The notes beneath the pieces are model-generated. The model was given only the letters and a program-made list of their open reading frames with translations. It did no database searches and was not told the DNA's origin. From the IMG/VR virus record IMGVR_UViG_3300031227_000045, positions 1 to 58,916 of that record: 58,916 nucleotides of DNA; one strand, 5' to 3'. Every line of letters starts with the position of its first letter. Within the stretch, counting starts at the first letter, position 1. This DNA comes from a virus. Its lineage: Duplodnaviria > Caudoviricetes. The position numbers and the translations under genes were made by a program. Of the stretch, positions 1,409 to 58,916 are shown in pieces.

Positions 1409-2376
1409 CACAAATACGTTCGTTAGTAAGAAAATCTACCAAGTCAGACAATTTCAAAGCATTTAGCCTGTTCTGGGATGGTGGATTTGACATAGACCTT
1501 ACATCTACAGGACTACAACTCTGTGGTGTACAAGATACTGCCGTCAGGGGATGGGAACCGATATCACCATCAGATAGTAGCGCTATACAGTTTGTGTCAA
1601 GCGATTTTACGCCGTATGGTCACGACCTAACATTTGATTTTATTATTTGCAACGATAGATTAAAGCAATTTGATGTTGCTAGACACCTATCTCACAAATT
1701 TCATTTACCATTAATCATTATAGACCACGCTACCCCTGGTGAATTAAATCTAACAGACATTGCGGTTGTTAATCAAAGTCGTGAATTTGCTATCAGTGTT
1801 GGTTGCCATCCTTTAATTAGTAAGGAATGGGACTGTGACTTTACTATACCATATGGTATAAATGTAGTAGATGACATTGAGCGAGACAGAACCAATGATG
1901 TATTAATACATGGTTCATTTTACCAACTGATTGAACAACAACAACCGCTTATTGAAAAAATTGTTAATGACACCAAGGCTAAGTTGTTTGGTCATAATAA
2001 GAAGCTTTCTAAACCATTCGCTTCATGGAGTCAATGTGAGACTGAACTATTAGACAGTAAAATTTATGTTAATCTATCAACAACACACTCACTTCCAAGA
2101 GGATTGTTATTAGCCATGGCTCATGGGTGTGCAGTAGTAACCAATTCTATTGATTTAACAGATGCAATCTTAGACAACAGACAAAATTGCATCATCATAA
2201 AAAACATTGAAGACATTACACCGTCTGTAAAGGAGCTATTAAACAACCCCATGTTGCGCACTAAACTGGCAACTAATGCTAGACAAACTATATTAGACAA
2301 TTTCCCAATGGACAAATTTGTTACTGAATGGAAGAATCTAATCAACACGTTTAAAGGAACATTATATTTACCATGA
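1405..2376 (+). CDS. GT-B (GT4-like) glycosyltransferase
   Basis: C-terminal KIYVNLS..SLPRGLLLAMAHGCAVV and LATNARQTILDNF....FVTEW are typical of Glycos_transf_1; ATGA overlap with the previous gene. Confidence 0.75.
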   Translation: MTQIRSLVRKSTKSDNFKAFSLFWDGGFDIDLTSTGLQLCGVQDTAVRGWEPISPSDSSAIQFVSSDFTPYGHDLTFDFIICNDRLKQFDVARHLSHKFHLPLIIIDHATPGELNLTDIAVVNQSREFAISVGCHPLISKEWDCDFTIPYGINVVDDIERDRTNDVLIHGSFYQLIEQQQPLIEKIVNDTKAKLFGHNKKLSKPFASWSQCETELLDSKIYVNLSTTHSLPRGLLLAMAHGCAVVTNSIDLTDAILDNRQNCIIIKNIEDITPSVKELLNNPMLRTKLATNARQTILDNFPMDKFVTEWKNLINTFKGTLYLP

Positions 2377-2783
2377 CTAAACTTACAGTTGTACATACCG
2401 AACCACAAAGCGACAATGAAATTCACATTACACAAATAGACACCGTAGTAAAGAATGCCATTGACCACTTGGTTGTAGGAGATAGTTTAGATTATATTGA
2501 AAATAGACTGGCCGGTTTAAAATTGTTGGTTTCTAAATTGCGCTATGATGGCATAATAGAGGTATCTGGCGTAGATATTTTTGCCCTCGCTAGAACTATA
2601 CATATGGCCTCCCAATCGTTACCAATGATTAACCAAATACTGTATAGTGGCCGACAGTCTATAGACTCCCTCAGAGGAATATTAGATGTGTTTAAACAAT
2701 ACGGCCTAGAAATACAAATCAAACAATTAAACGATGACTATATTTATTACGTAAAGGCTAAACGATGCTTCCCCCAATCTTAA
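2373..2783 (+). CDS. truncated class I SAM methyltransferase-like protein
   Basis: DSLDYI...LKLLVSKLRYDGIIEV resembles the methyltransferase post-motif-II L..LKPGG segment; no GxGxG motif visible. Confidence 0.45.
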   Translation: MTKLTVVHTEPQSDNEIHITQIDTVVKNAIDHLVVGDSLDYIENRLAGLKLLVSKLRYDGIIEVSGVDIFALARTIHMASQSLPMINQILYSGRQSIDSLRGILDVFKQYGLEIQIKQLNDDYIYYVKAKRCFPQS

Positions 2784-3592
2784 CTTCATGTAAAGACTGC
2801 TGTTTCGCCACATATGTTGATAATACTCAGGTTGGCTGCCAGGTTAGTATGATTGACAGGTTTAAGGCTGTAAATACTGTTGTTGATGCTTACGACAAAG
2901 ACAAAGAGTTCTTCGTTATATTAAATCATCAATGTATGCTTAAGCGCAGCCATGTGTGGAAAGATGAAAATGTATCATCTCAAATGTTTTGTCATGTGTT
3001 ATATGATACCCCATTCCCATATCATGTTGTCATTCTAGGTGATGATAGCGCCACGGACATTGTAGATACCATTAACAACATGGAAGGACAAACTCTTCTT
3101 CCTGCTAAAATTTCTGTTATAAGACCGTTTGGTTCTACGTCAAATATTACAACTGTTAGAGTAGCATTAGCTGATGTTGCCTTTAAGTCTGGTATCAAAT
3201 GGAGACTAGAAAATATCTTAAATCCAGATATTAATTTACCTACTACAATGCAACAATTGGTACTTAACAACAACAAAATTCCATATGTGGTATTTATAGA
3301 TGCTGGTATATTGTTAAGTAAAACCACACTAGCAGAGATTAGAGAAAAAATCTACATAGACTTATTACAATTTTCAGCAATAGAGTATCACGGTGTAACC
3401 ATTATGCCATTCAACATTTGGAAATACTTTAAACTAACAAGTAATCCTCAACACTCTATTGTAGATAACATTAGACAAAGTAATATTGCAGAAGAAAAAG
3501 ACGAATACACTAACATACATCAATTAACCAAATTAGTACCACAATGCCTATTAAACCAAAAACTACTATCATATACGCCGGTTCTGAGCTAA
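2765..3592 (+). CDS. hypothetical protein with N-terminal Cys cluster and degenerate GT-A (GT2-like) domain
   Basis: CKDCCFA..GC N-terminus; GQTLLPAKISVI and PYVVFIDAG resemble GT2 strands and the DxD region. Confidence 0.45.
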   Translation: MLPPILTSCKDCCFATYVDNTQVGCQVSMIDRFKAVNTVVDAYDKDKEFFVILNHQCMLKRSHVWKDENVSSQMFCHVLYDTPFPYHVVILGDDSATDIVDTINNMEGQTLLPAKISVIRPFGSTSNITTVRVALADVAFKSGIKWRLENILNPDINLPTTMQQLVLNNNKIPYVVFIDAGILLSKTTLAEIREKIYIDLLQFSAIEYHGVTIMPFNIWKYFKLTSNPQHSIVDNIRQSNIAEEKDEYTNIHQLTKLVPQCLLNQKLLSYTPVLS

Positions 3593-4125
3593 CTACACAG
3601 GACTATCCAAACCTAGAGGTTATCTGTGAAGAAACAGATAAGCCTGCTGAGCTATTTAATCGTCATATAGAACAGGGGTTCGGAGACAGTGTAGTAGTTG
3701 GCTTCATGGGGCGGGATTACGATTTCACTATGGATAATGCTGTGTCTCTGATGGTAGATAAACTGTCTGATGCGGCTATTATTGGTGCTGTATATGCTGA
3801 TTTGATAGTAGAAAATGTCATAGATGAATCATCCACTATGATGGCTAATCAATACTTACCAGCATTTCATGCCAATCTGTTAAGCGGACACATACCTATA
3901 ATGTCTCCGGTGTTTATAAAAACTAACTTACTTACACAACAGAGATTTCACCCTAAGTTAAAAAAGCTATATCATTGGTTATTTTTCTTAACCATTAGTC
4001 AAAACATCTTGAGCGCACATATACCACTACCGTTATTTAAACGTCATCAGGTATATGACGCTAATACTACAACAGCATCCGATTATAAATACATACAGCA
4101 ATGGCTAACGCAACAAGACACATAA
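3544..4125 (+). CDS. degenerate GT2-like protein
   Basis: QDYPNLEVI, IGAVYAD and HIPLPLF are GT-A-like segments; cluster context. Confidence 0.45.
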   Translation: MPIKPKTTIIYAGSELTTQDYPNLEVICEETDKPAELFNRHIEQGFGDSVVVGFMGRDYDFTMDNAVSLMVDKLSDAAIIGAVYADLIVENVIDESSTMMANQYLPAFHANLLSGHIPIMSPVFIKTNLLTQQRFHPKLKKLYHWLFFLTISQNILSAHIPLPLFKRHQVYDANTTTASDYKYIQQWLTQQDT

Positions 4126-24821: not shown

Positions 24822-24993
24822 CGGCTTTATTATCTTTAGAAAAATCCAAAATTTTGCCTTCTAACTCCTTGATTTTTTCGTCCTTGGTAACAATAAGTTG
24901 CTGTAAATGATTAAGCATTTGTGTACCGTTATAACCTTCTACATATAATTGTCCTATAACTTCATACAATTGTTTAGCGCGTTGTGGTTCCAT
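24799..24993 (-). CDS. small coiled-coil protein
   Basis: AGGAG Shine-Dalgarno upstream; heptad pattern. Confidence 0.6.
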   Translation of the reverse strand: MEPQRAKQLYEVIGQLYVEGYNGTQMLNHLQQLIVTKDEKIKELEGKILDFSKDNKADGNTSES

Positions 24994-25135
24994 GTTTTTC
25001 TCCTAAGTAATAAAAAAAGGTCAGAAGTTATACTCGACTGCCTGCCAAGGAAGCCTATCGCATTTCTTCTGACCCAGAGATTAATTTAACAGAGATGTAC
25101 ATAATCTCTGAGTCCTAAAAACTCGTCCTAAATTG

Positions 25136-25164
25136 AAAAAGGGGCACAGTTACCTGTACCCCTT
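25136..25164 (-). terminator. intrinsic terminator after the tail tube gene
   Basis: - strand AAGGGGTACAG-GTAA-CTGTGCCCC followed by TTTTT. Confidence 0.8.
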
Positions 25165-25171
25165 AATCGAA

Positions 25172-35376: not shown

Positions 35377-36975
35377 CTATACCTCAAAGCAATATTTCGC
35401 CTGTCCGCAATCCCAAATCTTAACTAGACCCTTATCGTAACCAGTATTACTGGGAAATTTACTTCTGTGAAATACCTCATATTGTCCATTTGTCCACTTA
35501 AAACTAGGATGTTCTCCAACATACTTAAAACCCAAGTTGGTAAGATATGACCCATTTCCATACCTTAAGTCTATAAAAGTTGTTATAGATGTAGGCTTTA
35601 ACTGTCCCACAGCATATTTTAGCAACCTAGAAAATCCTCCACGCACACTACAATTTAATAGTGGGCAAAAGCGAGAAATCTCATATGTAGAATCTTCAAC
35701 ACAACACACCCTCATCAAACATACGATTTCATCATTAAGTATTAATGCGTAGGATGTACCCCTACCATTACCCATTAAATGATTCTTCTGTAAGAAATCC
35801 TTAGAAGTAGTCTTGTCCACCGTTTGAATTTTACATTCTCTAGCGTTTAACTTGCGCGCACCACCAAACTTATTAGATATGATAGACTTTACAATATCAA
35901 ATTTATTATTGATTTCATCCTCTCTGAAAAATAGCGGAGTATATTCATTTTTAATATAAAGTTTGCGTTTGTTAACATGATAATTGTTATCTTTCACTAC
36001 TGCATCTGAATGCCAATAAAGACCATCACACTCTATGATTAAGTTATGAGAGGGAATAAAGAAGTCTGCAATTTTTCCTTCTACACGAAATTGTTTTTGA
36101 TATGGGATAGATAAGGTGTTGAACCATTCTCGCATAGTTACCTCTAAAGAACTTTCTTGTGGAGTTAATGTAATAGCTTTTTCTATACCATATTTAACTA
36201 CCAAAGTATAAAAATGAGAGCGCGAAAACCCAACCTGCTCAGCAATAGTAGGATATGTTTGGTCTTTATATAGTTTGACATCTCCGTTTGCAATTCTTGT
36301 TAAAAGCCCTTTATGCACTGCATCCTTAGCAACATTAGATATCTTCATATGATGAGTAACTCCACGCTTTTGAATATGGGTTGCGCGGATTTTGGCCTTT
36401 ATCCCTTCATCCTGAAAGGCGTTATCTACGCCAAATTTAGTTTGACACCCATCTTTCATAAGCTCTTTTCCTGCATCACTTTGAGAAGCATAAGCAGTAC
36501 CAAATCGCTCTTTACAAGTCTCCATTCTTTTTTGTTTAACATCTTCTAAGAGAGAGGGGTTATCTACGCCATATTTATCAATAAATACTTGTTTTTGATG
36601 TTCCTTTACATCGTCGTTTTGTATAGCATGTTCACAACCATATTTTTTTAGATTGGTTTGTTTAACTTGCTCTTTAAATTCATCTGATTGGAGACGGTCT
36701 ATATTAGCATCTCTAATCTTATCTTTTACATCCTTTAACTGAGATACATTTTTCACTCCGTACTTAGCCATATTTACATCCGACATCTTTTCATAGCGAC
36801 AAGCTTTACAAGAATCCTTATCAACCAGGACATTTGATTTAGTTCGTCGTTTTGGAGTCGTGTCATAAATCCTATCACAATAATCACACTGAACTTTAAC
36901 CTTTTTATTTGAGCCACTACTTAAGCTTGCAGGATAATAACTATAGGTCTCTAAAGTTTGTTGTACTAATAACAT
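35377..36975 (-). CDS. Hef-like/Vsr-type homing endonuclease with KYGV repeats
   Basis: Repeated K(Y/F)GVDN units; SSLE..ADFFIP..IECDGLYWH; C-terminal GGFSRLLKY, DLRYGNG, WDCGQ. Confidence 0.8.
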   Translation of the reverse strand: MLLVQQTLETYSYYPASLSSGSNKKVKVQCDYCDRIYDTTPKRRTKSNVLVDKDSCKACRYEKMSDVNMAKYGVKNVSQLKDVKDKIRDANIDRLQSDEFKEQVKQTNLKKYGCEHAIQNDDVKEHQKQVFIDKYGVDNPSLLEDVKQKRMETCKERFGTAYASQSDAGKELMKDGCQTKFGVDNAFQDEGIKAKIRATHIQKRGVTHHMKISNVAKDAVHKGLLTRIANGDVKLYKDQTYPTIAEQVGFSRSHFYTLVVKYGIEKAITLTPQESSLEVTMREWFNTLSIPYQKQFRVEGKIADFFIPSHNLIIECDGLYWHSDAVVKDNNYHVNKRKLYIKNEYTPLFFREDEINNKFDIVKSIISNKFGGARKLNARECKIQTVDKTTSKDFLQKNHLMGNGRGTSYALILNDEIVCLMRVCCVEDSTYEISRFCPLLNCSVRGGFSRLLKYAVGQLKPTSITTFIDLRYGNGSYLTNLGFKYVGEHPSFKWTNGQYEVFHRSKFPSNTGYDKGLVKIWDCGQAKYCFEV

Positions 36976-50019: not shown

Positions 50020-50048
50020 TTGACAGAATTATAAAACTAGCCTATAAT
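50020..50048 (+). promoter_or_regulatory. consensus sigma70 promoter
   Basis: TTGACA-17 nt-TATAAT. Confidence 0.9.
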
Positions 50049-50058: not shown

Positions 50059-50113
50059 GTAAGTGTGGCGTATGACACCAAGAAATGTGGATATTTCAAG
50101 AAATAGGAGCAAA

Positions 50114-50380
50114 ATGATGAATAAAATATGGTCAGACGTAGATAAACAGTTCGTTAAGGACAACGCTGGTAAGATGAAGGATAGTAAGATAGCAGAAGAA
50201 TTGACTAAGCGTAACAATAGAAAGGTCAGTTTACAAGCTGTACGTAAACAACGCCAAAAGCTAGGTTTAAACAAAAAACCTGGCAGAGGTATATGTGCGC
50301 TAGTAGAGCAGGAAAAAATTCAACAACCAATGGCGGCACCAACCCCATCATCGGGTGTCCCCGCTAATGTAGCTTTATAA
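50114..50380 (+). CDS. small HTH (Myb/GcrA-like) DNA-binding protein
   Basis: WS..D..F......D.KIAEEL.....SLQAVRKQRQKLGL; AGGAG SD before ATG 50114. Confidence 0.65.
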   Translation: MMNKIWSDVDKQFVKDNAGKMKDSKIAEELTKRNNRKVSLQAVRKQRQKLGLNKKPGRGICALVEQEKIQQPMAAPTPSSGVPANVAL

Positions 50381-50391
50381 GGAGGCTTAAA

Positions 50392-50874
50392 ATGAAGACT
50401 AAAGTACTGAGTATAGTTAGTCTGATATTCTTGTGTGGGTGTTTATTAACATCAGAGACTATGGGACAAGAACGCATACCTTACCATCCATATGTTCATT
50501 CACCTAATTTGTCTAAGATTATACCACAAATGGTACAGTATAACGTAACATTATACACAGACCATAAGGACACTAATGGTATTTCCTTTCTGCAACACAT
50601 ACGTATCTATGCGAATCCAGAATCAACATTAGCCTATCGTGCCGTGTACAAAGATGTGTTCAACACTCTGGTTGTGATACCTTTAGAAACCGGTGGGGTG
50701 CTGTTCGTTCCCCAACCATCTATTAAGGGAATTAAGATTGTCCACTCTCCCAAAAAGCAAAAAACCACGCTAAGCATGACGAAACCCACAAATTATTTGA
50801 CAGAAATTCCAAATGGTCCAACAGTTCGGCTTGACAAACTGCCGACTTATGATATAATGCCGATGCCGCAGTAG
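50392..50874 (+). CDS. exported/membrane-anchored hypothetical protein
   Basis: MKTK followed by a hydrophobic stretch ending FLCGC (signal peptide or atypical lipobox); AAGGAGG SD. Confidence 0.55.
   Translation: MKTKVLSIVSLIFLCGCLLTSETMGQERIPYHPYVHSPNLSKIIPQMVQYNVTLYTDHKDTNGISFLQHIRIYANPESTLAYRAVYKDVFNTLVVIPLETGGVLFVPQPSIKGIKIVHSPKKQKTTLSMTKPTNYLTEIPNGPTVRLDKLPTYDIMPMPQ
50831..50858 (+). promoter_or_regulatory. sigma70 promoter with extended -10 upstream of NAMPT
   Basis: TTGACA-16 nt-TATAAT with TGn, embedded in the upstream CDS. Confidence 0.8.
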
Positions 50875-50919
50875 GATGGCGAGGTTTCAAAGACATTTTC
50901 AAATTTTGAGGAGTAAGGT

Positions 50920-52344
50920 ATGATACTAGGTTATAATGAGAACATTATGCTGTTGACTGACTCGTACAAGACAAGTCACTACAAACAATATCCCCCAAAG
51001 ACAACCAATGTCTATTCTTATTTTGAGAGTAGGGGCGCCCCTTATGATATTTGTTTCTTCGGTTTACAATACATCCTTGAGCGATATTTAGCTGGCGTAC
51101 AAGTTACACCTGATAAAATACGACAAGCTAGAGACCTTGTTAATGAACACATGGGCGGCGATGTTTTCAATACTGATGGTTGGAACTATATTCTCCACAA
51201 CTATCAAGGACGCTTACCCGTGCGCATTAAAGCAGTTCCCGAAGGTACTGTGGTTTCCCCACACAATGTTCTGATGACTATTGAGAACACTGACCCAAAT
51301 TGCTACTGGCTGACTAACTATCTTGAAACACTCTTAGTTCAAGCATGGTATCCTACTACGGTAGCCTCTCAAAGTCGCGCCATGAAACAAATCATACAAA
51401 GACACGCCGATGTAACCAGCGAAGACACAAATGTAGATTTTAAACTTCATGACTTTGGTTTTCGGGGTTCTACCTCTGTTGAGAGCGCTGCATTGGGTGG
51501 GGCCGCACACCTTTTAAACTTCAGGGGCACTGATACAATAGCCGCCCTCTCATTACTAAAGCAGTATTATGGAGCAGATGATGTAGCGGGATTTTCTATT
51601 CCAGCATCGGAACACAGCACTATGACGGCGTGGGGTCAGGACCGTGAACTTGATGCCATGCGCAATATGCTTGAACAGTATCCTACTGGTCTAGTTGCAT
51701 GTGTTAGTGATTCATTTGATATTTATCAAGCATGTGAAAAATACTGGGGCACATTACTAAAAGACCGAGTATTGGCGCGAGATGGTATATTAGTAGTGCG
51801 TCCTGATAGCGGTGACCCACCAACAGTAGTCAGAAAGGTTTTAACAATCCTTGGTAAACAATTTGGATATACTGTTAATAGTAAGGGGTATAAAGTACTA
51901 AATCCCAAGGTAAGAGTTATCCAAGGTGACGGTATTGACATTAAAATGTTAAAGGAAATTCTTTATCATATACAAGTAACAGGTCAGTGGGCCTCAGAGA
52001 ATGTTGCATTTGGGTCTGGTGGTGGTTTATTACAAAAGGTTGATAAAGACACTTGTAAATTTGCCTTTAAGTGTTCTAGCGTGGTTGTAGATGGCGAAAA
52101 AAGAGATGTTTGGAAAAAGCCCATAACTGACTCTGGTAAGGACAGTAAAAGAGGGCGATTGTCATTAATTCGCAGTGATGCTAATTTTATTAGGCGTCAT
52201 AAAGATGAATTTATAACTGTAGCAGAAAATCGTAATAAAAACTACGATGAACTTCAAACTGTCTTTCTGAATGGAGCAATAGTAAGAAGAGATTCTTTGA
52301 CAGCTATTAGAAAGAGAGTAACTAGCCCACCAGTCGGTGTATAG
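50920..52344 (+). CDS. nadV: nicotinamide phosphoribosyltransferase (NAMPT)
   Basis: TDSYKTSH, YFESRG, LHDFGFRG, IPASEHS, VRPDSGDP, IQGDG, FGSGGGLLQK. Confidence 0.95.
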   Translation: MILGYNENIMLLTDSYKTSHYKQYPPKTTNVYSYFESRGAPYDICFFGLQYILERYLAGVQVTPDKIRQARDLVNEHMGGDVFNTDGWNYILHNYQGRLPVRIKAVPEGTVVSPHNVLMTIENTDPNCYWLTNYLETLLVQAWYPTTVASQSRAMKQIIQRHADVTSEDTNVDFKLHDFGFRGSTSVESAALGGAAHLLNFRGTDTIAALSLLKQYYGADDVAGFSIPASEHSTMTAWGQDRELDAMRNMLEQYPTGLVACVSDSFDIYQACEKYWGTLLKDRVLARDGILVVRPDSGDPPTVVRKVLTILGKQFGYTVNSKGYKVLNPKVRVIQGDGIDIKMLKEILYHIQVTGQWASENVAFGSGGGLLQKVDKDTCKFAFKCSSVVVDGEKRDVWKKPITDSGKDSKRGRLSLIRSDANFIRRHKDEFITVAENRNKNYDELQTVFLNGAIVRRDSLTAIRKRVTSPPVGV

Positions 52345-52522
52345 TAATGTGGTGGGACGCACTTTTTGTTGCCCCTTAACTATTCTAGGTTTTAAGAAAA
52401 GGAGGAGACACTCGATGTACTTCACTTCAATTCTAGCATAGGGAGGGGGTGGTCATATCTCGGTGTGTCTTGCCGTATCATAGACAACATGAGGGTCGCA
52501 TCAATTGGTGCGACCCTCTTTA
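52336..52522 (+). ncRNA. putative small structured RNA carrying an 8-codon ORF (52415-52441, MYFTSILA)
   Basis: GGTGTATAGT motif, AAAGGAGG SD, micro-ORF, second extended SD-like tract, and terminator hairpin. Confidence 0.45.
52491..52522 (+). terminator. intrinsic terminator-like hairpin
   Basis: GAGGGTCGCA..TGCGACCCTC 10-bp stem followed by TTTA (short T-tract). Confidence 0.7.
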
Positions 52523-52542
52523 TATTGAAAGGAATACTTAAA

Positions 52543-52929
52543 ATGTGTTTGGTTAAAAGTAAGGTTCATACTAAAGAATTTCGTAAAGAAGCACCTAAAA
52601 TTGTTACTGTATGGAAAGTTCTATTGGTAAGGAATGATAGGTGGTTTAGTCCATATAGATGTACGGATAATGCTATTAAACCAGGCGAGTGGTTACTTTC
52701 TAATAGACGCTGGTATCACCGCTGGCAAGAACGATTAGGAACAGTCCATAATGGAATTCATGTTTATCTAGACGAAAACTGGGCTAGGTGTTATGCTATT
52801 GGTAATTCTACAAACCTAATTCTTGTAGAATGTACCGCCAGAAGAAAAGATTTTGTTAGTTGTTGTTATTCCAAACGACATGCAGTTTTTACTAAGATTC
52901 TTATACCAAAGCAACCAGACTGGCAGTAA
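52543..52929 (+). CDS. hypothetical protein, paralogue of the next gene
   Basis: MCL..IVTVWKV..SPY..SNRRWY..GIHVYLD..HAVFTKI shared with 52963..53367; start at ATG 52543 after AAGGA. Confidence 0.75.
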   Translation: MCLVKSKVHTKEFRKEAPKIVTVWKVLLVRNDRWFSPYRCTDNAIKPGEWLLSNRRWYHRWQERLGTVHNGIHVYLDENWARCYAIGNSTNLILVECTARRKDFVSCCYSKRHAVFTKILIPKQPDWQ

Positions 52930-52962
52930 CTAGAAAAGAAGATACAAAAAGGATAACAAAAT

Positions 52963-53367
52963 ATGTGTTTAATCGCTGAACCTGTTAATACTCAACGTCT
53001 ATTAGAAAAATTACATCCAATTGTTACAGTATGGAAAGTAGTAAAAAGAATACCCAATAGTATACAATCACCACATTATTACACACCATATTATTGCAAA
53101 CGAATTAAACAAAAGGGTTGGATGCGCTCTAATAGAAGGTGGTACACACCTACTATAGAAAGATTTTTTTCACTTCCTCACCCATACTATAGTGTACGCA
53201 AAGGCATTCATGTGTATTTAGACAAACGCACAGCAGTTGGAATGAGTCATATACTTCAAGGTGATGTAGTAAGATGTAGAGCCTTAAGAAGTGATTTAGT
53301 TGCTTGTGATGGATTACAAAGCCATGCTGTATTTACTAAGATTTATGTACCAAAGTTAGACATATGA
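52963..53367 (+). CDS. hypothetical protein, paralogue of the previous gene
   Basis: Same motif series; AAGGA SD. Confidence 0.75.
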   Translation: MCLIAEPVNTQRLLEKLHPIVTVWKVVKRIPNSIQSPHYYTPYYCKRIKQKGWMRSNRRWYTPTIERFFSLPHPYYSVRKGIHVYLDKRTAVGMSHILQGDVVRCRALRSDLVACDGLQSHAVFTKIYVPKLDI

Positions 53368-53888
53368 ACAATATAGCAGAACATATAATTGTCGTTAACC
53401 ATGCTTTAAAAAATAACCTACCTATTTACTGGCATCAAGACGATAACTTTCAATGTGAGTTCGATGACATCTTTGATAACCAACAATTAGACATAGTTAA
53501 TGAGCCTATTCCTCTTACATATCCAAGTGTATTACCAGGAATAAACAAGGTAATGTTCAAACCCTCTATAATTTGTCGCGCAGAAGAAATGTCACAACAA
53601 CTTAATGTGGGCGAATGTATGGGGGTTGAAATGGATAGTATTGGGGTAAAGGATGATGGACTGCCTTTGTTCTTGAGTGTGCGCAATAGACAGGAGATAA
53701 TTGAGGGGCGCAGGAAATGGGGCGAGAGAATCACATATTATAATAGGTCTGTATGGGGCTACCATAGGAAGGACGGGGTCGTAGAAGGGGTTATAAACTT
53801 TCTTCTGTTCGTTATGTGTGGTCAAATTAATACCTCAACGTATAATGGCTTTTTAGCTCAGCGTTTTAGTGGGGCCGTTAATGTATAA
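53364..53888 (+). CDS. hypothetical protein
   Basis: ATGA coupling; 174 aa. Confidence 0.6.
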   Translation: MNNIAEHIIVVNHALKNNLPIYWHQDDNFQCEFDDIFDNQQLDIVNEPIPLTYPSVLPGINKVMFKPSIICRAEEMSQQLNVGECMGVEMDSIGVKDDGLPLFLSVRNRQEIIEGRRKWGERITYYNRSVWGYHRKDGVVEGVINFLLFVMCGQINTSTYNGFLAQRFSGAVNV

Positions 53889-54303
53889 ACACCAACACGC
53901 CAATACAACGATTTGCGGGCCTATAGCCTTGGCTAACCTACAGATATGGGAGGGAGGCACCACCTATACCTTGAAACAACTCAAGCAAATGTGTCATTGT
54001 ACTAATGGGAGGGGCTCTCCTATGATTTGGTTTGCAAGGAGTCTTTGTGAGATGGGTAGTACATACGGGTGGCAAATAGAGGCCGTGAATCGTTTAGAAT
54101 TGGTTGTGGCGCAAGATACAATAATGGTCGGGCATTTTCGCAATGAAGAATTTCCGCGCGGGCATTATATGTTAATCACAGGTGGTCACGGTAGTGTTTT
54201 TTGCTGCATAAATTGGAGGAGGAGAGTAGAGCATGTGGCTTTGGAGGAGCTGTTGAAACTAAACATTTCGAAGACGTGGATTGTGAGGAAAGGTGTTAAA
54301 TAA
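53881..54303 (+). CDS. papain-fold (C39-like) cysteine peptidase
   Basis: Q....CGPIALAN, GHYMLI, and a downstream Asn (INW) giving a Cys-His-Asn triad pattern. Confidence 0.6.
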   Translation: MYKHQHANTTICGPIALANLQIWEGGTTYTLKQLKQMCHCTNGRGSPMIWFARSLCEMGSTYGWQIEAVNRLELVVAQDTIMVGHFRNEEFPRGHYMLITGGHGSVFCCINWRRRVEHVALEELLKLNISKTWIVRKGVK

Positions 54304-54374
54304 AAGTGACTGTTTGTTAATATGGTGTATTTGATAAAGGTGGTATATTTCACATTTTTGAATGAGGCGTAGAT

Positions 54375-55790
54375 ATGGGAAGACCAGCAGGTTCTTTAGA
54401 TAAGAAAAGACGTAAAACTAAAACACAATGGACTACTAGTGAAGTAGAGTTGCTTAAACAAAACTTATGTGATTTAACAATAGTAGAATTAGCAATATTA
54501 TTACATAAGTCTAAAAGTTCCATACGTAATAAATTAAAACAATTAAGGCTAATTAAACCTAACATTTTAAAAACATGTACTTTAGATAAATCTATAGAAT
54601 GGTCTTTTGCTGGTGTTTATGGTTTATTAAACATTAAAACTAATTGTATCTATATAGGTAGTAGTGCGAATATTGCTAATAGAATACAAAATCATTTAAG
54701 TCGCTTAAGGGTTGATTCACATTGTACTAAAAAACTACAATCTAATTGGAATAAATCAGATTTTGTAGTTGCGTTATTATTTGTGTGTGATAAATACAAA
54801 ACTGAGTTATATGAACAAAGATTTACAAGGTCGTGGCCTGAAGACAAATTGTATAATTCTCCCCCGATACAACATACTAAATTACGTTTACTACCACTAG
54901 AGAGACAAAAGATATTAGATTTAATAGATAAAAAAGGGGACGATGAATGTTGGAATTGGAAAGGGCCATTAGATAGTAATGGCAAATATGGCAGAATAAG
55001 GTTTGACAATAAGCAGTATACGCCTCATCGCCTGGCAGTGTTTTTAGATGGACGAGACCCATTTGGTTATGCAGTTTGTCATTTATGTAATAACCCATTA
55101 TGTTGTAACCCCAAACATTTGCAACTAGGAACCGCTATAATTAATAATGGGCATAAACCCCACCCTTTGGATATCTATAAAGATGAAATGATTAAATTAT
55201 ACAATAGTGGTATGACTTACAATAGTCTAGGTAAAAAATACAATAGAGACGGTGTAAGTATTAAAAGGTATTTACAACAACATGTTACATTAAGGCCCGC
55301 ACAACGCAAGAGGACATATGTAGCCTTTGGAGAGTATAAATCTTTATCCGAGTGGGTTTTAGATAACAGGTGTATTATTACACTATTTAGACTAAAACAA
55401 AGAGTCAAAACAACAAACTTAAATGATAATAATATTGAAAAAATTATTACAACCCCATTCATAAGAAAAACCCCGTTTTCTACAAAAACATTTGAAGCTT
55501 TTGGAGAACAAAAAACAGTGCGAGAATGGCTATTAGATAAAAGATGTGTAGCATCAGAATCAACCCTAAAGGTTAGGTTATTTACTATTGGTTATGATGT
55601 AGAAAAAGCTTTAACAATCCCATCTAAACCTGTATTTAAAATATCTCAATTAGAATATCCTAAGATTATTGAAGCGGCTGCAAAAGGTGAAACATACAAA
55701 ACTATTGCCGAAAGATACAATGTTTCTATAACAACGATTAGACTCATTTGTGTCTATAGATATTCATCGGATGTGTATACATTGCCGTAA
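54375..55790 (+). CDS. multidomain endonuclease: HTH + GIY-YIG + HNH + DNA-binding repeats
   Basis: GVYGLLN....IYIGSS..R..H; CWNWKG..YGRI..HRL..VCHLCNNPLCCNPKHL; AFGE.K...EW..D.RC twice. Confidence 0.85.
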   Translation: MGRPAGSLDKKRRKTKTQWTTSEVELLKQNLCDLTIVELAILLHKSKSSIRNKLKQLRLIKPNILKTCTLDKSIEWSFAGVYGLLNIKTNCIYIGSSANIANRIQNHLSRLRVDSHCTKKLQSNWNKSDFVVALLFVCDKYKTELYEQRFTRSWPEDKLYNSPPIQHTKLRLLPLERQKILDLIDKKGDDECWNWKGPLDSNGKYGRIRFDNKQYTPHRLAVFLDGRDPFGYAVCHLCNNPLCCNPKHLQLGTAIINNGHKPHPLDIYKDEMIKLYNSGMTYNSLGKKYNRDGVSIKRYLQQHVTLRPAQRKRTYVAFGEYKSLSEWVLDNRCIITLFRLKQRVKTTNLNDNNIEKIITTPFIRKTPFSTKTFEAFGEQKTVREWLLDKRCVASESTLKVRLFTIGYDVEKALTIPSKPVFKISQLEYPKIIEAAAKGETYKTIAERYNVSITTIRLICVYRYSSDVYTLP

Positions 55791-55920
55791 AAGTGGCCAT
55801 TTCAATAAATAGGTGGGGGTATTTATGATAAATGAGGCTCACCACTTAGCCTGAACCCCTGCCAGAAATCTTACCTAAAGTACCTACCCTTTTTACATTG
55901 AAAAAACCCCCTGGGTTCAT

Positions 55921-55964
55921 CGGGTACAGCGAGTGTGCTTCGGGTACAGCGAGTGTGCTTCGGG
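55921..55964. repeat. 20-bp tandem repeat (CGGGTACAGCGAGTGTGCTT) x2.2
   Basis: Exact copies; flanked by inverted GGGTTC (55913) and GAACCC (55965). Confidence 0.9.
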
Positions 55965-56210
55965 GAACCCCTTGACAATCCCCTCAATCTACTGTATGTC
56001 AACCATGCAAACCGGCACCGATTATCCCCCTCGAATAGAAAATAAAGTATTTTCAATCGACGTAACCTATTGCTATCAAAGGGATTACATCGGGGGGTGT
56101 GGCCCAATTCACAATGGGTACAATGGGGTATTTTTCGACGTAAATTGTTGGTGTGTAACTACTTAAGTATTACCCCACCTTTGGTGGTAAACTGTAGGGT
56201 AGAGGGACAC

Positions 56211-56351
56211 ATGAAACACAAACAACAACGCCCCGACGGTAGCAAACGGCCCCGACGTAACGGGGAACGGGGTATTGCAAGGCAAAGCTATTATGCAAAG
56301 TATCGGGCAAAAAGGTTTGCGGCCCGATTCTTCCCTTCTGAAAAGGAGTAG
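56211..56351 (+). CDS. 46-aa highly basic peptide
   Basis: AGAGGGA SD; candidate extended -10 TGGTAAACT at 56185-56193; its end contains the SD of the next gene. Confidence 0.55.
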   Translation: MKHKQQRPDGSKRPRRNGERGIARQSYYAKYRAKRFAARFFPSEKE

Positions 56352-56356
56352 CGACA

Positions 56357-56626
56357 ATGGGAGCCCTGCCACTTAGCTTGAAACGTTTCGAGGGAGCGAC
56401 GCCGGGTTGTATCGCGTTCAGCCATAGGGACAAGAACGGCACCGTTACCTACCACAGTTGGAGTCTGAACCATGAGGGGGCCAGGGTATACCTCCGGCGT
56501 GGGGTGCTGGTCGTCAAGGGATACGACTACAATGCCCCCGCCCGCTACGGGTGTGGTTTGGGCGATTGGAGAACCCTTGAGCTAGCCCGCATGTTCACCC
56601 GACATTCTGACATAGTGGTCGGATGA
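56357..56626 (+). CDS. hypothetical protein (89 aa)
   Basis: AAGGAG SD. Confidence 0.65.
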   Translation: MGALPLSLKRFEGATPGCIAFSHRDKNGTVTYHSWSLNHEGARVYLRRGVLVVKGYDYNAPARYGCGLGDWRTLELARMFTRHSDIVVG

Positions 56627-56634
56627 TAACCAGG

Positions 56635-56695
56635 GGCTCCCCTCGCAAGAGGGGAGTCGCCGCCTGCCCCCTCGCTGGAGGGGGTGGGTGGCGGC
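56635..56695 (+). other. intergenic double-hairpin element, copy 1
   Basis: GGCTCCCCTC-GCAA-GAGGGGAGTC immediately followed by GCCGCCTGCCCCCTC-GCTG-GAGGGGGTGGGTGGCGGC. Confidence 0.8.
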
Positions 56696-56726
56696 TAACT
56701 ACAATCCTCTTTTTTGGAGAGTCGGA

Positions 56727-56939
56727 ATGCATTACAGCCCCTATGAGACAAGTTTGTTTATCGCCATGTTGGACCAAGCACCCATTCGCGTCAACGGATT
56801 CACCCCAGCGAGGGACTGGATTCGTATTATGGCAGTCGTCTTAAAGCTGGAAGTTAAAAAGGACGGCCTTGGTGAGTTAATTGCCACAGTCGAGGACAAC
56901 AAGGGTTGTGTTCTGGTTGTCGAAATAGCCGATGGTTAA
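56727..56939 (+). CDS. hypothetical protein (70 aa)
   Basis: GGAG SD before ATG 56727. Confidence 0.6.
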   Translation: MHYSPYETSLFIAMLDQAPIRVNGFTPARDWIRIMAVVLKLEVKKDGLGELIATVEDNKGCVLVVEIADG

Positions 56940-56948
56940 CCAGCACCA

Positions 56949-57009
56949 GGCTCCCCTTCGTAAGAGGGGGAGTCGCCGCCTGCCCCCTGCTAAGGGGGTA
57001 GACGGCGGC
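56949..57009 (+). other. intergenic double-hairpin element, copy 2
   Basis: GGCTCCCCTTC-GTAA-GAGGGGGAGTC followed by GCCGCCTGCCCCCT-GCTA-AGGGGGTAGACGGCGGC. Confidence 0.8.
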
Positions 57010-57041
57010 TGAAACCCTTACTTTTACTTGGAGTGGTTACC

Positions 57042-57236
57042 ATGCAAACAATGAATCTCAGCTTGCAAGTGGTTACAAGAGACGGAGAAACGGTCGTCAA
57101 GGCTAGAGTCGGACGTGGTATGTCAGTCATGGAAAAAGACTTCTCGATTGTGGAGTGGAAAAGTCTGGCTAGTGACATTGCACAAGAGATTAGAGAGATT
57201 GAATTGGCACAATGGGCGGAGTGTTTCTGCCCCTAG
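57042..57236 (+). CDS. hypothetical protein (64 aa)
   Basis: GGAG SD before ATG 57042; followed by a terminator. Confidence 0.6.
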   Translation: MQTMNLSLQVVTRDGETVVKARVGRGMSVMEKDFSIVEWKSLASDIAQEIREIELAQWAECFCP

Positions 57237-57245
57237 GGTAGCGTA

Positions 57246-57283
57246 CCCTCCCCCTCACTTGAGGGGGAGGGCCTTTTGCTTTT
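57246..57283 (+). terminator. intrinsic terminator
   Basis: CCCTCCCCCTC-ACTT-GAGGGGGAGGG then CCTTTTGCTTTT. Confidence 0.8.
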
Positions 57284-57765
57284 GGTATTCATCGTAAGTT
57301 GTTATTACATAAGGACTTACAACTCGTACTGCGTGACGTGACTTAACCTCTTGCTATCAAAGGCTTTACGTCGAATCGTCCTTAAGTGGGGGTTACATAG
57401 AGGGGTGAGTATCCCAGAGTACCCAGCTTATCTATACTACTCAAACAGCACACCTTGCCCAGTTGTCCCAGCTTAACTAGCTTCGTCCGCCGGGGGGTAT
57501 GTGCCCCTGCTAGCGAAGTACCTCTAATTATTTTTTGGAATCCCCATAGGTGGCAACCCCCTCTGAGGTAGTACAAATGGTAAGATGGGTAAGCTGCGCT
57601 AGATAGGTATGTTACTATGGGGTGTTTGGGTACATTAGGTTGACCTACCCCCCCGTACCGGAAACGGAAGTGTCCTTTACACCCGTTTGGGGGGGTGACG
57701 TGACGTAACCCCTTATGGCATAACGACTTACGACTACCCCTCCTATGGGTGGCATAGGCTAACCC

Positions 57766-57792
57766 TTGACTACCCCTGTATAATACTATAGA
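57766..57792 (+). promoter_or_regulatory. possible promoter for the second small-gene operon
   Basis: TTGACT and TATAAT/TACTAT hexamers are present, but spacing is non-canonical. Confidence 0.35.
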
Positions 57793-57866
57793 GGGGTTCG
57801 GGGGAGGCAGGGGGGTGAGTAAACCCCCCACCCGAACTACGGCACCCCACTAGAGGAGTACTCATT

Positions 57867-58208
57867 ATGGCGGAAACCCAGACCTGGAAGAGTGGGCAAG
57901 CTACGCAAGATACGCAAGCTCCGCGGTTCTGCGGCACTGCGTCGATTAGTCAAGCCATAGAATGTGGCGGGTATGGGAAAACCTGGGGGTTTTGGTACTT
58001 TGGGAAGAAAGACCAAGCCCCGCGATATAGGTGGGCTACGGTCCACCCCCCGACTGGGGACAAGCCCACCCTCGTGAGTGGTAGTCACTTCGTGGGGTAC
58101 GACCCCCACGCGAAAGATAGGAAGACTGGGGCGATTGGGGGGTTTAGGTTCTTCTACTTCGGAAAGATGGACGACCTTAGTCCTGTGGAGGGGTACTTCA
58201 CCCCCTAG
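57867..58208 (+). CDS. hypothetical protein (113 aa) with internal GFWYFGK/GFRFFYFGK repeat
   Basis: GAGGAG SD; structured leader at 57796-57837. Confidence 0.65.
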   Translation: MAETQTWKSGQATQDTQAPRFCGTASISQAIECGGYGKTWGFWYFGKKDQAPRYRWATVHPPTGDKPTLVSGSHFVGYDPHAKDRKTGAIGGFRFFYFGKMDDLSPVEGYFTP

Positions 58209-58226
58209 ACTGAGTAGTCCAAGTGG

Positions 58227-58285
58227 GGTGCCCCTCGCAAGAGGGGTGCCTCTCCCTGCCCCCCAGAGTAAGGGGTCAAAGAGAG
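58227..58285 (+). other. intergenic double-hairpin element, diverged copy 3
   Basis: GGTGCCCCTC-GCAA-GAGGGGTGCC followed by CTCTC..CCCC-AGAGTAA-GGGG..GAGAG. Confidence 0.65.
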
Positions 58286-58316
58286 TCAACAACACCCCCA
58301 CAAGAGGAGCATACAG

Positions 58317-58688
58317 ATGTTCAGCAACTCCGAGTTCGCCCAAATTACCGGCATCCCCCAAGATGCCATGGGTGCCCTGCCCCCCTTGGGTGCCCACCTT
58401 TGCAGGGAGCTGTCATTTGCCGAGTTTGCCCTATTTACCATCCCGGTGGTTGAGGTAAACGGGGCAACCCACGACCTCTGGGCTGTTAAGCGACAGTCGG
58501 CAACCCGCATGGGCCTGGATGCTCGCGGGGAAGAGGCAAGCTGGGCAAAAGAGGAAGAACGGAGAAGGAAGGAAAACCTTGCACACTACATCGAGTTGGC
58601 TGAAAAGGGGTTCTGCGACGGTGAGGAAGTCGAGGAACTTGAGGTAAGCCTGACCGACTGTGCCCTTCATAGGAAAGGGGAAGGTTAG
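58317..58688 (+). CDS. hypothetical protein (123 aa)
   Basis: GAGGAG SD; followed by a terminator. Confidence 0.65.
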   Translation: MFSNSEFAQITGIPQDAMGALPPLGAHLCRELSFAEFALFTIPVVEVNGATHDLWAVKRQSATRMGLDARGEEASWAKEEERRRKENLAHYIELAEKGFCDGEEVEELEVSLTDCALHRKGEG

Positions 58689-58704
58689 GCTAGTTGGGTA
58701 AGTC

Positions 58705-58728
58705 GCCCCCCGAAAGGGGGGCTTTTTT
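58705..58728 (+). terminator. intrinsic terminator
   Basis: GCCCCCC-GAAA-GGGGGGC-TTTTTT. Confidence 0.9.
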
Positions 58729-58810
58729 ATGTAGTCATCCTATTTGTCCCAGCTTAACTTGCTTCTTCCACCGGGGGGTGCGCCACCCTGCCAGCGAACT
58801 AGGGTGAGCA

Positions 58811-58883
58811 CACTTAGTGAAAATACACTAGGTGTGTTAGCACTACCGTAGTGTAGTAACACTTAGTGCGTTAGCACCTTGAG
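58811..58883. repeat. periodic CAC..GTG mini-palindromes
   Basis: CACTTAGTG (58811), CACTAGGTG (58826), CACTACCGTAGTG (58841), CACTTAGTG (58860), CACCTTGAG (58875); spacings 15,15,19,15. Confidence 0.7.
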
Positions 58884-58916
58884 TCGCCATAAGCCCTTTG
58901 ATAGCCTAGACTTAGG

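Follow-up and report, generated by a model that had tools for sequence, protein, structure and literature searches.

A candidate RNA element with a micro-ORF and two Shine-Dalgarno-like tracts attached to a phage NAMPT gene

We describe an RNA element that lies directly 3′ of a phage NAMPT (nicotinamide phosphoribosyltransferase) gene and is probably functional, as a similar layout is found in one distant phage. The DNA analyzed, here called the window, is the whole 58,916-base IMG/VR virus record IMGVR_UViG_3300031227_000045 (Caudoviricetes), with an estimated completeness of 39%. The element fills the 198-nt spacer between the NAMPT stop codon TAG (52342-52344) and the next ATG (52543), and is predicted to fold on the plus strand as a ~130-nt hairpin with a strong intrinsic terminator after it. 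It contains a Shine-Dalgarno (SD) sequence, SD1, leading a micro open reading frame (micro-ORF), and then an extended SD look-alike, SD2, which is predicted to be held by a C-rich box resembling an anti-SD. Tentatively, and at somewhat less than an even chance, we read it as a short translated RNA in which the anti-SD-like box would switch between SD1 and SD2, the latter serving as a decoy. NAMPT is an NAD-salvage counter-defence gene, with which phages restore NAD+.

Layout of the element

The element and the genes that flank it comprise the following features.

50920..52344, plus strand: NAMPT gene, 474 aa (ORF and tblastn)
52336-52345, plus strand: −10-like 'promoter' motif GGTGTATAGT, overlapping the last NAMPT codons and the stop
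52337..52346, plus strand: box A, GTGTATAGTA, −10-like, a candidate phage promoter at the NAMPT stop
52347..52363, plus strand: 5′ arm of helix P1, predicted to pair with 52462-52478
52369..52377, plus strand: C-rich anti-SD-like box UUGCCCCUU, 5′ arm of helix P2, predicted to pair with 52444-52452
52380..52389, plus strand: 5′ arm of helix P3 (CUAU.CUAGG), predicted to pair with 52432-52441
52397..52405, plus strand: SD1, AAAAGGAGG, 9 nt upstream of ATG 52415
52415..52441, plus strand: micro-ORF MYFTSILA, 8 codons and TAG (52439-52441), from the sequence
52439..52454, plus strand: SD2 box TAGGGAGGGGGTGGTC, extended SD look-alike and 3′ arm of P2, from sequence and fold
52462..52478, plus strand: 3′ arm of P1, from the fold
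52463..52483, plus strand: putative 6-codon GTG ORF (MCLAVS), 8 nt past SD2 and in frame with the micro-ORF
52491..52526, plus strand: intrinsic terminator (12-bp stem with 8 G-C pairs, 4-nt loop), then UUUAUAUU
52543..53367, plus strand: two paralogous small ORFs, 128 and 134 aa, starting 24 nt 3′ of the terminator

SD1, the micro-ORF, the 11-mer AGGGGGTGGTC (52444-52454) within the SD2 box and the terminator all lie where the original prediction, made from the letters of the window, had placed them; so do TGTCT (52466-52470) and AGACA (52482-52486), which it had offered as alternative partners. The observation is real and non-random. Its statement that no ATG follows the second SD at normal spacing holds for ATG, but a GTG (52463) does follow at 8 nt, opening the 6-codon ORF listed above. 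Few SDs in the window are as strong as SD1. The 11-mer AGGGGGTGGTC has no other exact copy in the window, and sites within two mismatches of it number 22 (8.5 ± 2.9 expected). SD2 is followed after 36 nt by the terminator, and the nearest real gene start, which has its own SD, is 89 nt past SD2. The terminator is of the Rho-independent kind, with a stem at 52491-52518 (12 pairs, 8 of them G-C, pair probability 0.98-1.0) and then TTTATATT.

No tRNA or tmRNA gene was found in the window with ARAGORN. Rfam, the comparison suggested with the original prediction, returned no match for the element: release 15 gave none at the gathering score over the whole window, and the five matches within 52250-52600 have E values of 2.6-9 and fall at least 28 bits under gathering.

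Predicted RNA fold

When the 181 nt from 52345 to 52525 are folded as plus-strand RNA, −70.5 kcal/mol is obtained (z −5.9), which is equaled by none of 200 shuffles; the hairpin without the terminator gives −46.9 kcal/mol (z −3.9, 0/200 shuffles). In a GC-corrected sliding scan, the element is the sole plus-strand segment outside 56.5-58.7 kb among the 25 strongest. The minus strand folds to −46.1 kcal/mol with P1 lost, and thus the structure is an RNA feature of the plus strand.

Three helices make up the hairpin. P1 (52347-52363 with 52462-52478) has 17 bp, including 7 G-U pairs. P2 joins the C-rich box to AGGGGGUGG (52444-52452) and has 2 more pairs, amounting to 11 bp. An AA/GG internal loop separates it from P3, in which CUAU.CUAGG of 52380-52389 pairs with UCUAG.AUAG of 52432-52441 over 9 bp. 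P3 closes a 42-nt apical region containing SD1, the AUG and the first codons, while the 3′ half of the micro-ORF descends the 3′ arm of P3 and its stop codon adjoins SD2.

Pair probabilities are 0.55-1.0 in P1, P2 and P3, and 0.79-1.0 for the C-rich box with SD2. The bases of SD2 are unpaired at only 0-0.2, except at three looped-out or bulged positions. On this pairing, the 'second SD' forms the 3′ side of a helix that has an anti-SD look-alike as its 5′ side. The hairpin originally proposed, with three local helices around the micro-ORF, is different. Those helices have a pair probability of ~0 in the full context, where P1, P2 and P3 replace them, and that local hairpin (−25 kcal/mol) forms only without the 5′ arm (the upstream 45 nt).

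A counterpart after an orthologous NAMPT gene

A NAMPT scan of metagenome contigs gave 26 loci. Left out were L131-133 and L146, which are the same match as L130, and L139-L145 and L147, in which the NAMPT 3′ end is missing. The remaining 14, together with L002, the one locus found when the NAMPT protein was compared with the IMG/VR contigs (49% identity, without the element), provided 15 NAMPT-downstream regions for examination. The ordered boxes were found in one of them, L122, whose NAMPT is 64% amino-acid identical to that of the window. By tblastx, NAMPT is the sole feature common to the window and L122.

In L122 the same 10-mer as box A, GTGTATAATA, directly follows the NAMPT stop (1836-1845). 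Because it is outside the coding sequence there and inside it in the window, the conservation of box A is not a coding effect. A C-rich box, ACCUCUU (1869-1875), comes 23-24 nt after box A, as in the window. A helix of unrelated sequence to P3 (1872-1882 with 1924-1934) closes a 41-nt apical region, in which AAAGGAG lies 6 nt before ATG 1892. The SD2 counterpart TAAGGAAGGGGTGATC follows at 1930-1945; its 16-nt box (TARGGARGGGGTGRTC) differs from that of the window by three transitions only. For a non-coding box at 64% NAMPT identity, this implies selection. A homologue preserving the second SD, whose absence the original prediction had named as one of its refutations, thus exists. Further downstream are another hairpin and then a terminator-like hairpin by RNAfold (2004-2036, with UUUUUAUUU), on which a simple scanner makes no call.

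Overall similarity between the two elements is weak. Their alignment scores 70.5, whereas 300 shuffles average 49.9 ± 6.5 and reach 71.5 at most; among the 15 real downstream regions, L122 aligns best (z 2.8), the next scoring 58. The apical regions being closed by helices of different sequence in the two phages fits structural conservation, for which two sequences are no proof.

Searches beyond the NAMPT loci brought no further relative. The element had no match among GenBank phages in blastn (distant mode), and the L122 element had a lone 41-nt chance match there (E 0.2) and none in Rfam at E up to 10. The composite patterns SD1 to SD2, box A to SD2 and SD2 to C-rich box each had no match in the IMG/VR contigs. 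The exact SD2 14-mer occurs there at no fewer than 119 loci; none of the blastn matches listed extends past ~35 nt, and they were therefore set aside as chance matches. Three matches to SD1 to SD2 in species-representative genomes (a ribosome-binding site with ATG, a repeat region and an intergenic site) lack the other boxes and were likewise judged chance.

As SD and ATG are kept in both phages, the conserved part could be a small-protein gene, with an ancestral peptide of ~22-23 aa that is intact in L122 and cut by an in-frame TAG at codon 9 in the window. From AUG 52415 to the second in-frame stop (52481-52483) are 23 codons, and from 1892 to 1963 in L122 are 24; the conserved box reads KEGVI in L122 and, in another frame, REGVV in the window, with conservative differences. 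However, the REGVV frame is not that of the AUG, and peptide similarity outside the box is zero. TAG ends NAMPT in both phages, which means that it is not recoded, and the strong strand-specific fold of the window would be left unexplained. The L122 ORF encodes 23 aa, is basic and reads through SD2, and has no similarity to MYFTSILA, so the peptide element that was also proposed originally finds no conserved peptide. We give this explanation little credence.

Complementarity of SD2 to the 16S 3′ end

The 16S 3′ 11-mer GAUCACCUCCU was folded against every 16-nt segment of both strands (117,802 positions). The SD2 tract 52440-52455 ranks first, at −19.4 kcal/mol with the next at −16.8 kcal/mol, for the 11-mer as quoted in the original prediction. 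The pairing first noted for AGGGGGTGGTC is therefore the top predicted duplex in the window, and it comprises 11 nt including two G-U pairs. The SDs of this phage's genes are of the ordinary kind, in most cases GGA or AGGAG at 7-10 nt upstream of the start. In L122 as well, the SD2 box is the best 16S-tail partner within the 4.8-kb locus (−14.9 vs −11.4 kcal/mol).

We considered whether the element is a 30S-binding small RNA, in which SD2 would bind the 16S tail without productive initiation, stabilizing the RNA or tying up 30S subunits during infection. Its SD2 being the best 16S-tail partner in both the window and L122 speaks for this, as do the extension of the box through GGUGRUC, beyond the usual SDs of this phage, and the conservation of its sequence next to a P3 that is not conserved. 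There are also precedents in rreB and STAB-SD (PMC5711450, PMC4113751). On the other hand, the predicted folds of both RNAs have SD2 paired instead of exposed. Its 11 nt with two G-U pairs compare with 16-17 perfect nt in rreB. A general trap would also hit the phage's own genes, which use SDs, and for a STAB-SD-like role there is only the terminator downstream to protect. Being paired, shorter and imperfect, and protecting nothing downstream, SD2 makes such a role unlikely.

A possible SD/anti-SD switch

We conceived that the three boxes, namely the C-rich anti-SD look-alike (52369-52377), SD1 (52397-52405) with AUG 52415, and SD2 (52439-52454), could operate in this order as a translation-gated switch. 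The element would be a plus-strand RNA module attached 3′ of NAMPT and ending at its own terminator, either transcribed from box A, the −10-like sequence overlapping the NAMPT stop, or present as the 3′ untranslated region of the NAMPT transcript. In the ground state, SD2 would hold the anti-SD box, with P2 stacked on P3 and, in this phage, on P1, leaving the apical region to SD1 and the AUG. During translation of the micro-ORF, a ribosome would enter the 3′ arm and melt P3 and P2. The freed anti-SD box would then pair with SD1 and close it. SD2 would thus be an anti-anti-SD, or decoy SD, rather than the ribosome-binding site of a missing gene; in this proposal, the need to compete with an SD is the reason for its likeness to one.

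Constrained folds agree with the proposed order of events in both sequences. With a ribosome-sized unpaired block placed at the micro-ORF stop (window) or on SD2 (L122), the C-rich box pairs with SD1. In L122 RNA taken as nascent up to position 1946, the C-rich box pairs with the G-run of SD2. The translation-coupled switch of the original prediction therefore agrees with the folds in a modified form, with SD2 as a decoy partner of an internal anti-SD around the micro-ORF; so modified, the ribosome-related interpretation is plausible. Transcription of the RNA, translation of its micro-ORF and the working of the switch are inferences on our part. Its output may be self-limited translation, RNA stability or a transient exposure of SD2 to 30S subunits.

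A number of results weigh against the switch. SD1 is only partly open in the predicted ground state, in the window and L122 alike. The helix P1 was not found in L122, and in the full-length L122 RNA a P2-like register has a probability of ~0, as the SD2 G-run pairs with ACCCCU downstream (1980-1985); the two structures are alike in topology, not in detail. RNAalifold recovered neither P2 nor P3, since the 5′ arms had remained unaligned in the MAFFT alignment it was given. Among the two examples available, the three changes in P2 are all one-sided, with no compensatory double change. As any C-rich tract will pair with any SD, the alternative pairing is to some extent inevitable. Because the stem UGCCCC...GGAGGGGGU is also seen in plain intergenic hairpins of a GC-rich region, the SD-likeness is possibly a by-product of a G/C clamp. 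Self-limited translation of an 8-codon ORF has no evident purpose. Finally, the motif GGTGTATAGT is present as described but overlaps the NAMPT stop, and a sigma-70 scan for −35 and −10 hexamers 16-18 nt apart makes no call at 52336-52345, nor at 1836-1845 in L122. The self-contained unit running from promoter to terminator, as first proposed, is not established.

The same refolding could have another outcome, which we think quite improbable: throw-away translation of the micro-ORF would unmask the extended SD, which would capture the 16S 3′ tail and park a 30S subunit on a start-less site, or the anti-SD mimic would be released to pair with SDs of other mRNAs. If true, this would make the element a ribosome- or SD-titrating RNA traveling with NAMPT.

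The order of a promoter-like box, a short ORF, a terminator and genes is also that of a classical leader-peptide attenuator, and the element might be a 5′ leader governing read-through into the paralogues at 52543-53367. The 24 nt between the terminator and ATG 52543 are too short for a promoter, and a frame from GTG 52465 or ATG 52489 crosses the terminator in frame with the first paralogue. However, every fold computed, free or footprint-constrained, retains the terminator, and none shows a structure competing with its 12-bp stem. As the micro-ORF stop is also 50 nt upstream of that stem, classical attenuation is unlikely. The next gene in L122 is convergent (2043-3152, minus strand), so control of downstream genes as a leader cannot be the role that the two elements share. 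Altogether, we regard such an attenuator as highly improbable.

Hairpins processed in the manner of RNase III substrates occur between cistrons in the early region of T7. A long imperfect stem (P1 17 bp, P2 11 bp, P3 9 bp) between two same-strand genes could be such a processing or stabilizer hairpin. Yet L122 has no counterpart of P1, its longest helix being of 11-14 bp, and the conserved SD1 with ATG and the conserved box sequences would have no explanation. This too is very unlikely.

Hairpins shared with other gene boundaries

Intergenic hairpins with a P2-like stem are found elsewhere in the window, B1 at 56665-56685 and B2 at 56981-56999, with B3 as a looser third copy; the 11-mer GGAGGGGGTGG of the SD2 stem recurs in B1 at 56675-56685. 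They bear on a serious, if rather unlikely, alternative to the switch, in which the element is a passive boundary cassette or gene remnant, that is, a composite promoter, stem-loop and terminator of the PeSL kind and/or the scar of a small gene. SD1 with its ATG would then mark where a lost ORF once began, the G-rich tract would be an arm of a G/C clamp, and no role beyond termination and 3′-end protection would be needed.

NAMPT and the element are all that two otherwise unrelated contigs have in common, which would be expected of a module that is shuffled. Both B1 and B2 contain the stem UGCCCC(C)U / (GG)AGGGGGU, giving two matches besides the element where 0.18 are expected. In the region of B1-B3, hairpins and promoter-like boxes are repeated between small ORFs with a periodicity of ~1281 nt, and the order of box A, 5′ hairpin, SD and gene is seen again at 57776. 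PeSLs are described as composite terminator/promoter sequences at points of genetic exchange (PMC4122927).

A neutral scar, however, should have lost several things at 64% NAMPT identity: the 16-nt box, the spacing of SD and ATG, the equal apical size (42 and 41 nt) and the spacing of box A to the C-rich box. Copies of a PeSL recur at high identity in one genome, whereas the complete element was seen once in the window and once in L122. As for a gene remnant, 13 ORFs that follow NAMPT at 12 other loci were compared with the frames of the element by tblastn, and no protein similarity was found (no match at E <0.06 in a tiny database).

Boxes of the form GTGTATA(A/G)T(A/G) are present at the gene junctions 26377 (minus), 42838 (minus) and 57776 (plus), and at 1836 in L122; the 57776 box and that of L122 are identical at 15 of 17 positions (TGTATAATAnTATAG). 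From their sequence, they may be a phage-specific −10-type promoter, although boxes of the box A type in the window are at chance level (16 vs 14.7 expected).

Comparison with known systems

Platforms with an SD, an anti-SD and an anti-anti-SD include translational riboswitches, thermometers, and the erm and cat translational attenuators. The element is like them in that a C-rich anti-SD can pair with either of two SD-like tracts and a ribosome on a short ORF is predicted to shift the pairing. It differs in the order, which is anti-SD, SD1, ORF and decoy SD, with the sequestered SD2 preceding only a terminator, and in being 3′ of a gene, not 5′, with no known ligand or stalling signal. In erm and cat the start of the regulated gene follows the second SD at normal spacing; here the codons in question are GTG 52463, with its 6-codon ORF, and in L122 TTG 1955, 9 nt past SD2 and two codons before a stop.

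The gene rreB encodes a 165-nt mRNA with a 17-nt SD, whose strong association with 30S impedes translation (PMC5711450). The element is similar to rreB/rreR in its unit size (~165-180 nt), its terminator, a very short ORF and an unusually long 16S 3′ complementarity. In rreB, however, 16-17 nt are perfectly complementary, the last of them belonging to the GTG start codon of a conserved ORF of 14-18 aa, and rreB is an alpha-proteobacterial chromosomal gene (PMC5711450). The tract of the element, from an uncultured phage, has 11 nt with two G-U pairs, not a perfect match, comes after an AUG-started ORF with the GTG 8 nt on, and is internally paired; its peptides are of 8 aa in the window and 23 aa in L122, with no conserved 14-18-aa peptide.

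STAB-SD of cry3A mRNA binds 30S without initiating and, like SD2, is a non-initiating SD-like sequence complementary to the 16S 3′ end (PMC4113751). It is located near the 5′ end of a long mRNA, where it blocks RNase J1, whereas past SD2 there are just ~70 nt and a terminator. No stretch to be protected was seen past SD2, as a terminator follows in the window and L122 has no co-oriented gene downstream.

PeSLs of T4-type phages (PMC4122927) share with the element a promoter-like box, stem-loops and a terminator at the edge of a module shared across unrelated phages, and the recurrence of related hairpins among small ORFs of the same phage. The element, on the other hand, is much longer than a promoter with one stem-loop, holds a ribosome-binding site and start codon, and is conserved in short boxes only. 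PeSLs come as several near-identical copies around variable ORFs; in the window, which covers ~39% of the genome, the whole element is single-copy and its P2-like stem recurs in B1-B3.

From transcription attenuators, the element differs in having no antiterminator in free or footprint-constrained folds. Co-oriented downstream genes, present in the window, are not conserved, the next gene in L122 being convergent.

Genomic context and other structured regions

The NAMPT ORF matched 2019 phage records by tblastn, the best with 50.9% identity and annotated NAMPT; relatives in metagenome contigs reach 66-69% identity. The gene belongs to a plus-strand block that runs from a divergent promoter region (50063 to 55790). 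Two 12/12 sigma-70 consensus promoters at 50020-50048 and 50831-50858 (TTGACA, 16-17 nt, TATAAT) would drive this block, the latter falling within the ORF preceding NAMPT.

Near-identical DNA is found in 20 listed runs, all of them salt lake metagenomes and none recorded as RNA. In 3 of 4 runs examined, contigs span the element without any difference from the window, which leaves no natural variants against which to check the pairing. The sole variant common to runs is A>G at 52046 within NAMPT (3 of 4 runs), and the phage population in the examined runs is otherwise near-clonal over 51500-53500. In another NAMPT locus, L126, a tRNA-Gln (anticodon TTG, 3864-3936) directly follows the NAMPT stop, an RNA gene at the same site as the element.

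The two paralogues downstream are 45% identical to each other and both start with MCL. No Pfam or PHROG family matched them, and neither paralogue 1 nor the paralogue alignment had a match in the IMG/VR contigs. A homologue is located in L144 (22-432), upstream of the NAMPT gene there, so that a small protein of this type adjoins NAMPT in two contigs. Common to the three proteins are the MCL start, GIHV, C97 and D103, and we guess that the invariant Cys2 might be an N-terminal nucleophile. The nearest Atlas clusters are viral hypothetical proteins. Comparison by hhalign with the ORFs after NAMPT in L123 and L002 gave a probability of 0.14%, hence no link.

The region 55800-58916 (plus), directly after a homing endonuclease gene, has a GC content of 0.52-0.60, compared with 0.38 elsewhere, and contains the strongest folding outliers in the window. 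It is made of small SD-led ORFs, with repeated GC-rich double hairpins (a GNRA-loop hairpin, then UGCCCCC...GGGGGU) and promoter-like boxes between them, and its repeat families are ~1281 nt apart. A giant non-coding RNA at 55.8-58.9 kb was ruled out by these small SD-led ORFs and GC-rich hairpins, and the one Rfam match there (E 0.27) indicates no family. Its appearance is that of a hyperplastic region of PeSL-like cassettes, which may be of foreign origin.

The homing endonuclease ORF at 54375-55790 has GIY-YIG, HNH / His-Me finger and HTH domains. Another, at 35377-36975, has an HNH domain (phrog_3339) and lies in a local GC peak (0.50 at 34-36 kb). On the minus strand, a 350-nt spacer between structural-block genes (24822-25171) has two terminator-like hairpins, GGGGUACAGG...CUGUGCCCCUUUUU and GGGUCAGAAG...CUUCUGACCUUUUUUU, with a structured stretch of ~120 nt between them (z −3.8). 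It may represent another small RNA unit, or else two terminators in tandem.

Implications

Phage regulatory RNAs are poorly catalogued, and SD look-alikes without a start codon are usually written off as chance. Here, such a start-less tract is the most 16S-complementary site in 59 kb and is conserved in a second phage amid diverged surroundings. With two examples, the finding is a lead, not a discovery, and the element is a candidate for a new phage RNA module linked to NAMPT, the SD/anti-SD logic itself being already known. If the element is only a boundary cassette, it still marks the packaging and movement of a NAMPT module between phages. If the switch is real, it would be a compact new layout for translation-dependent RNA refolding, riding with NAMPT.

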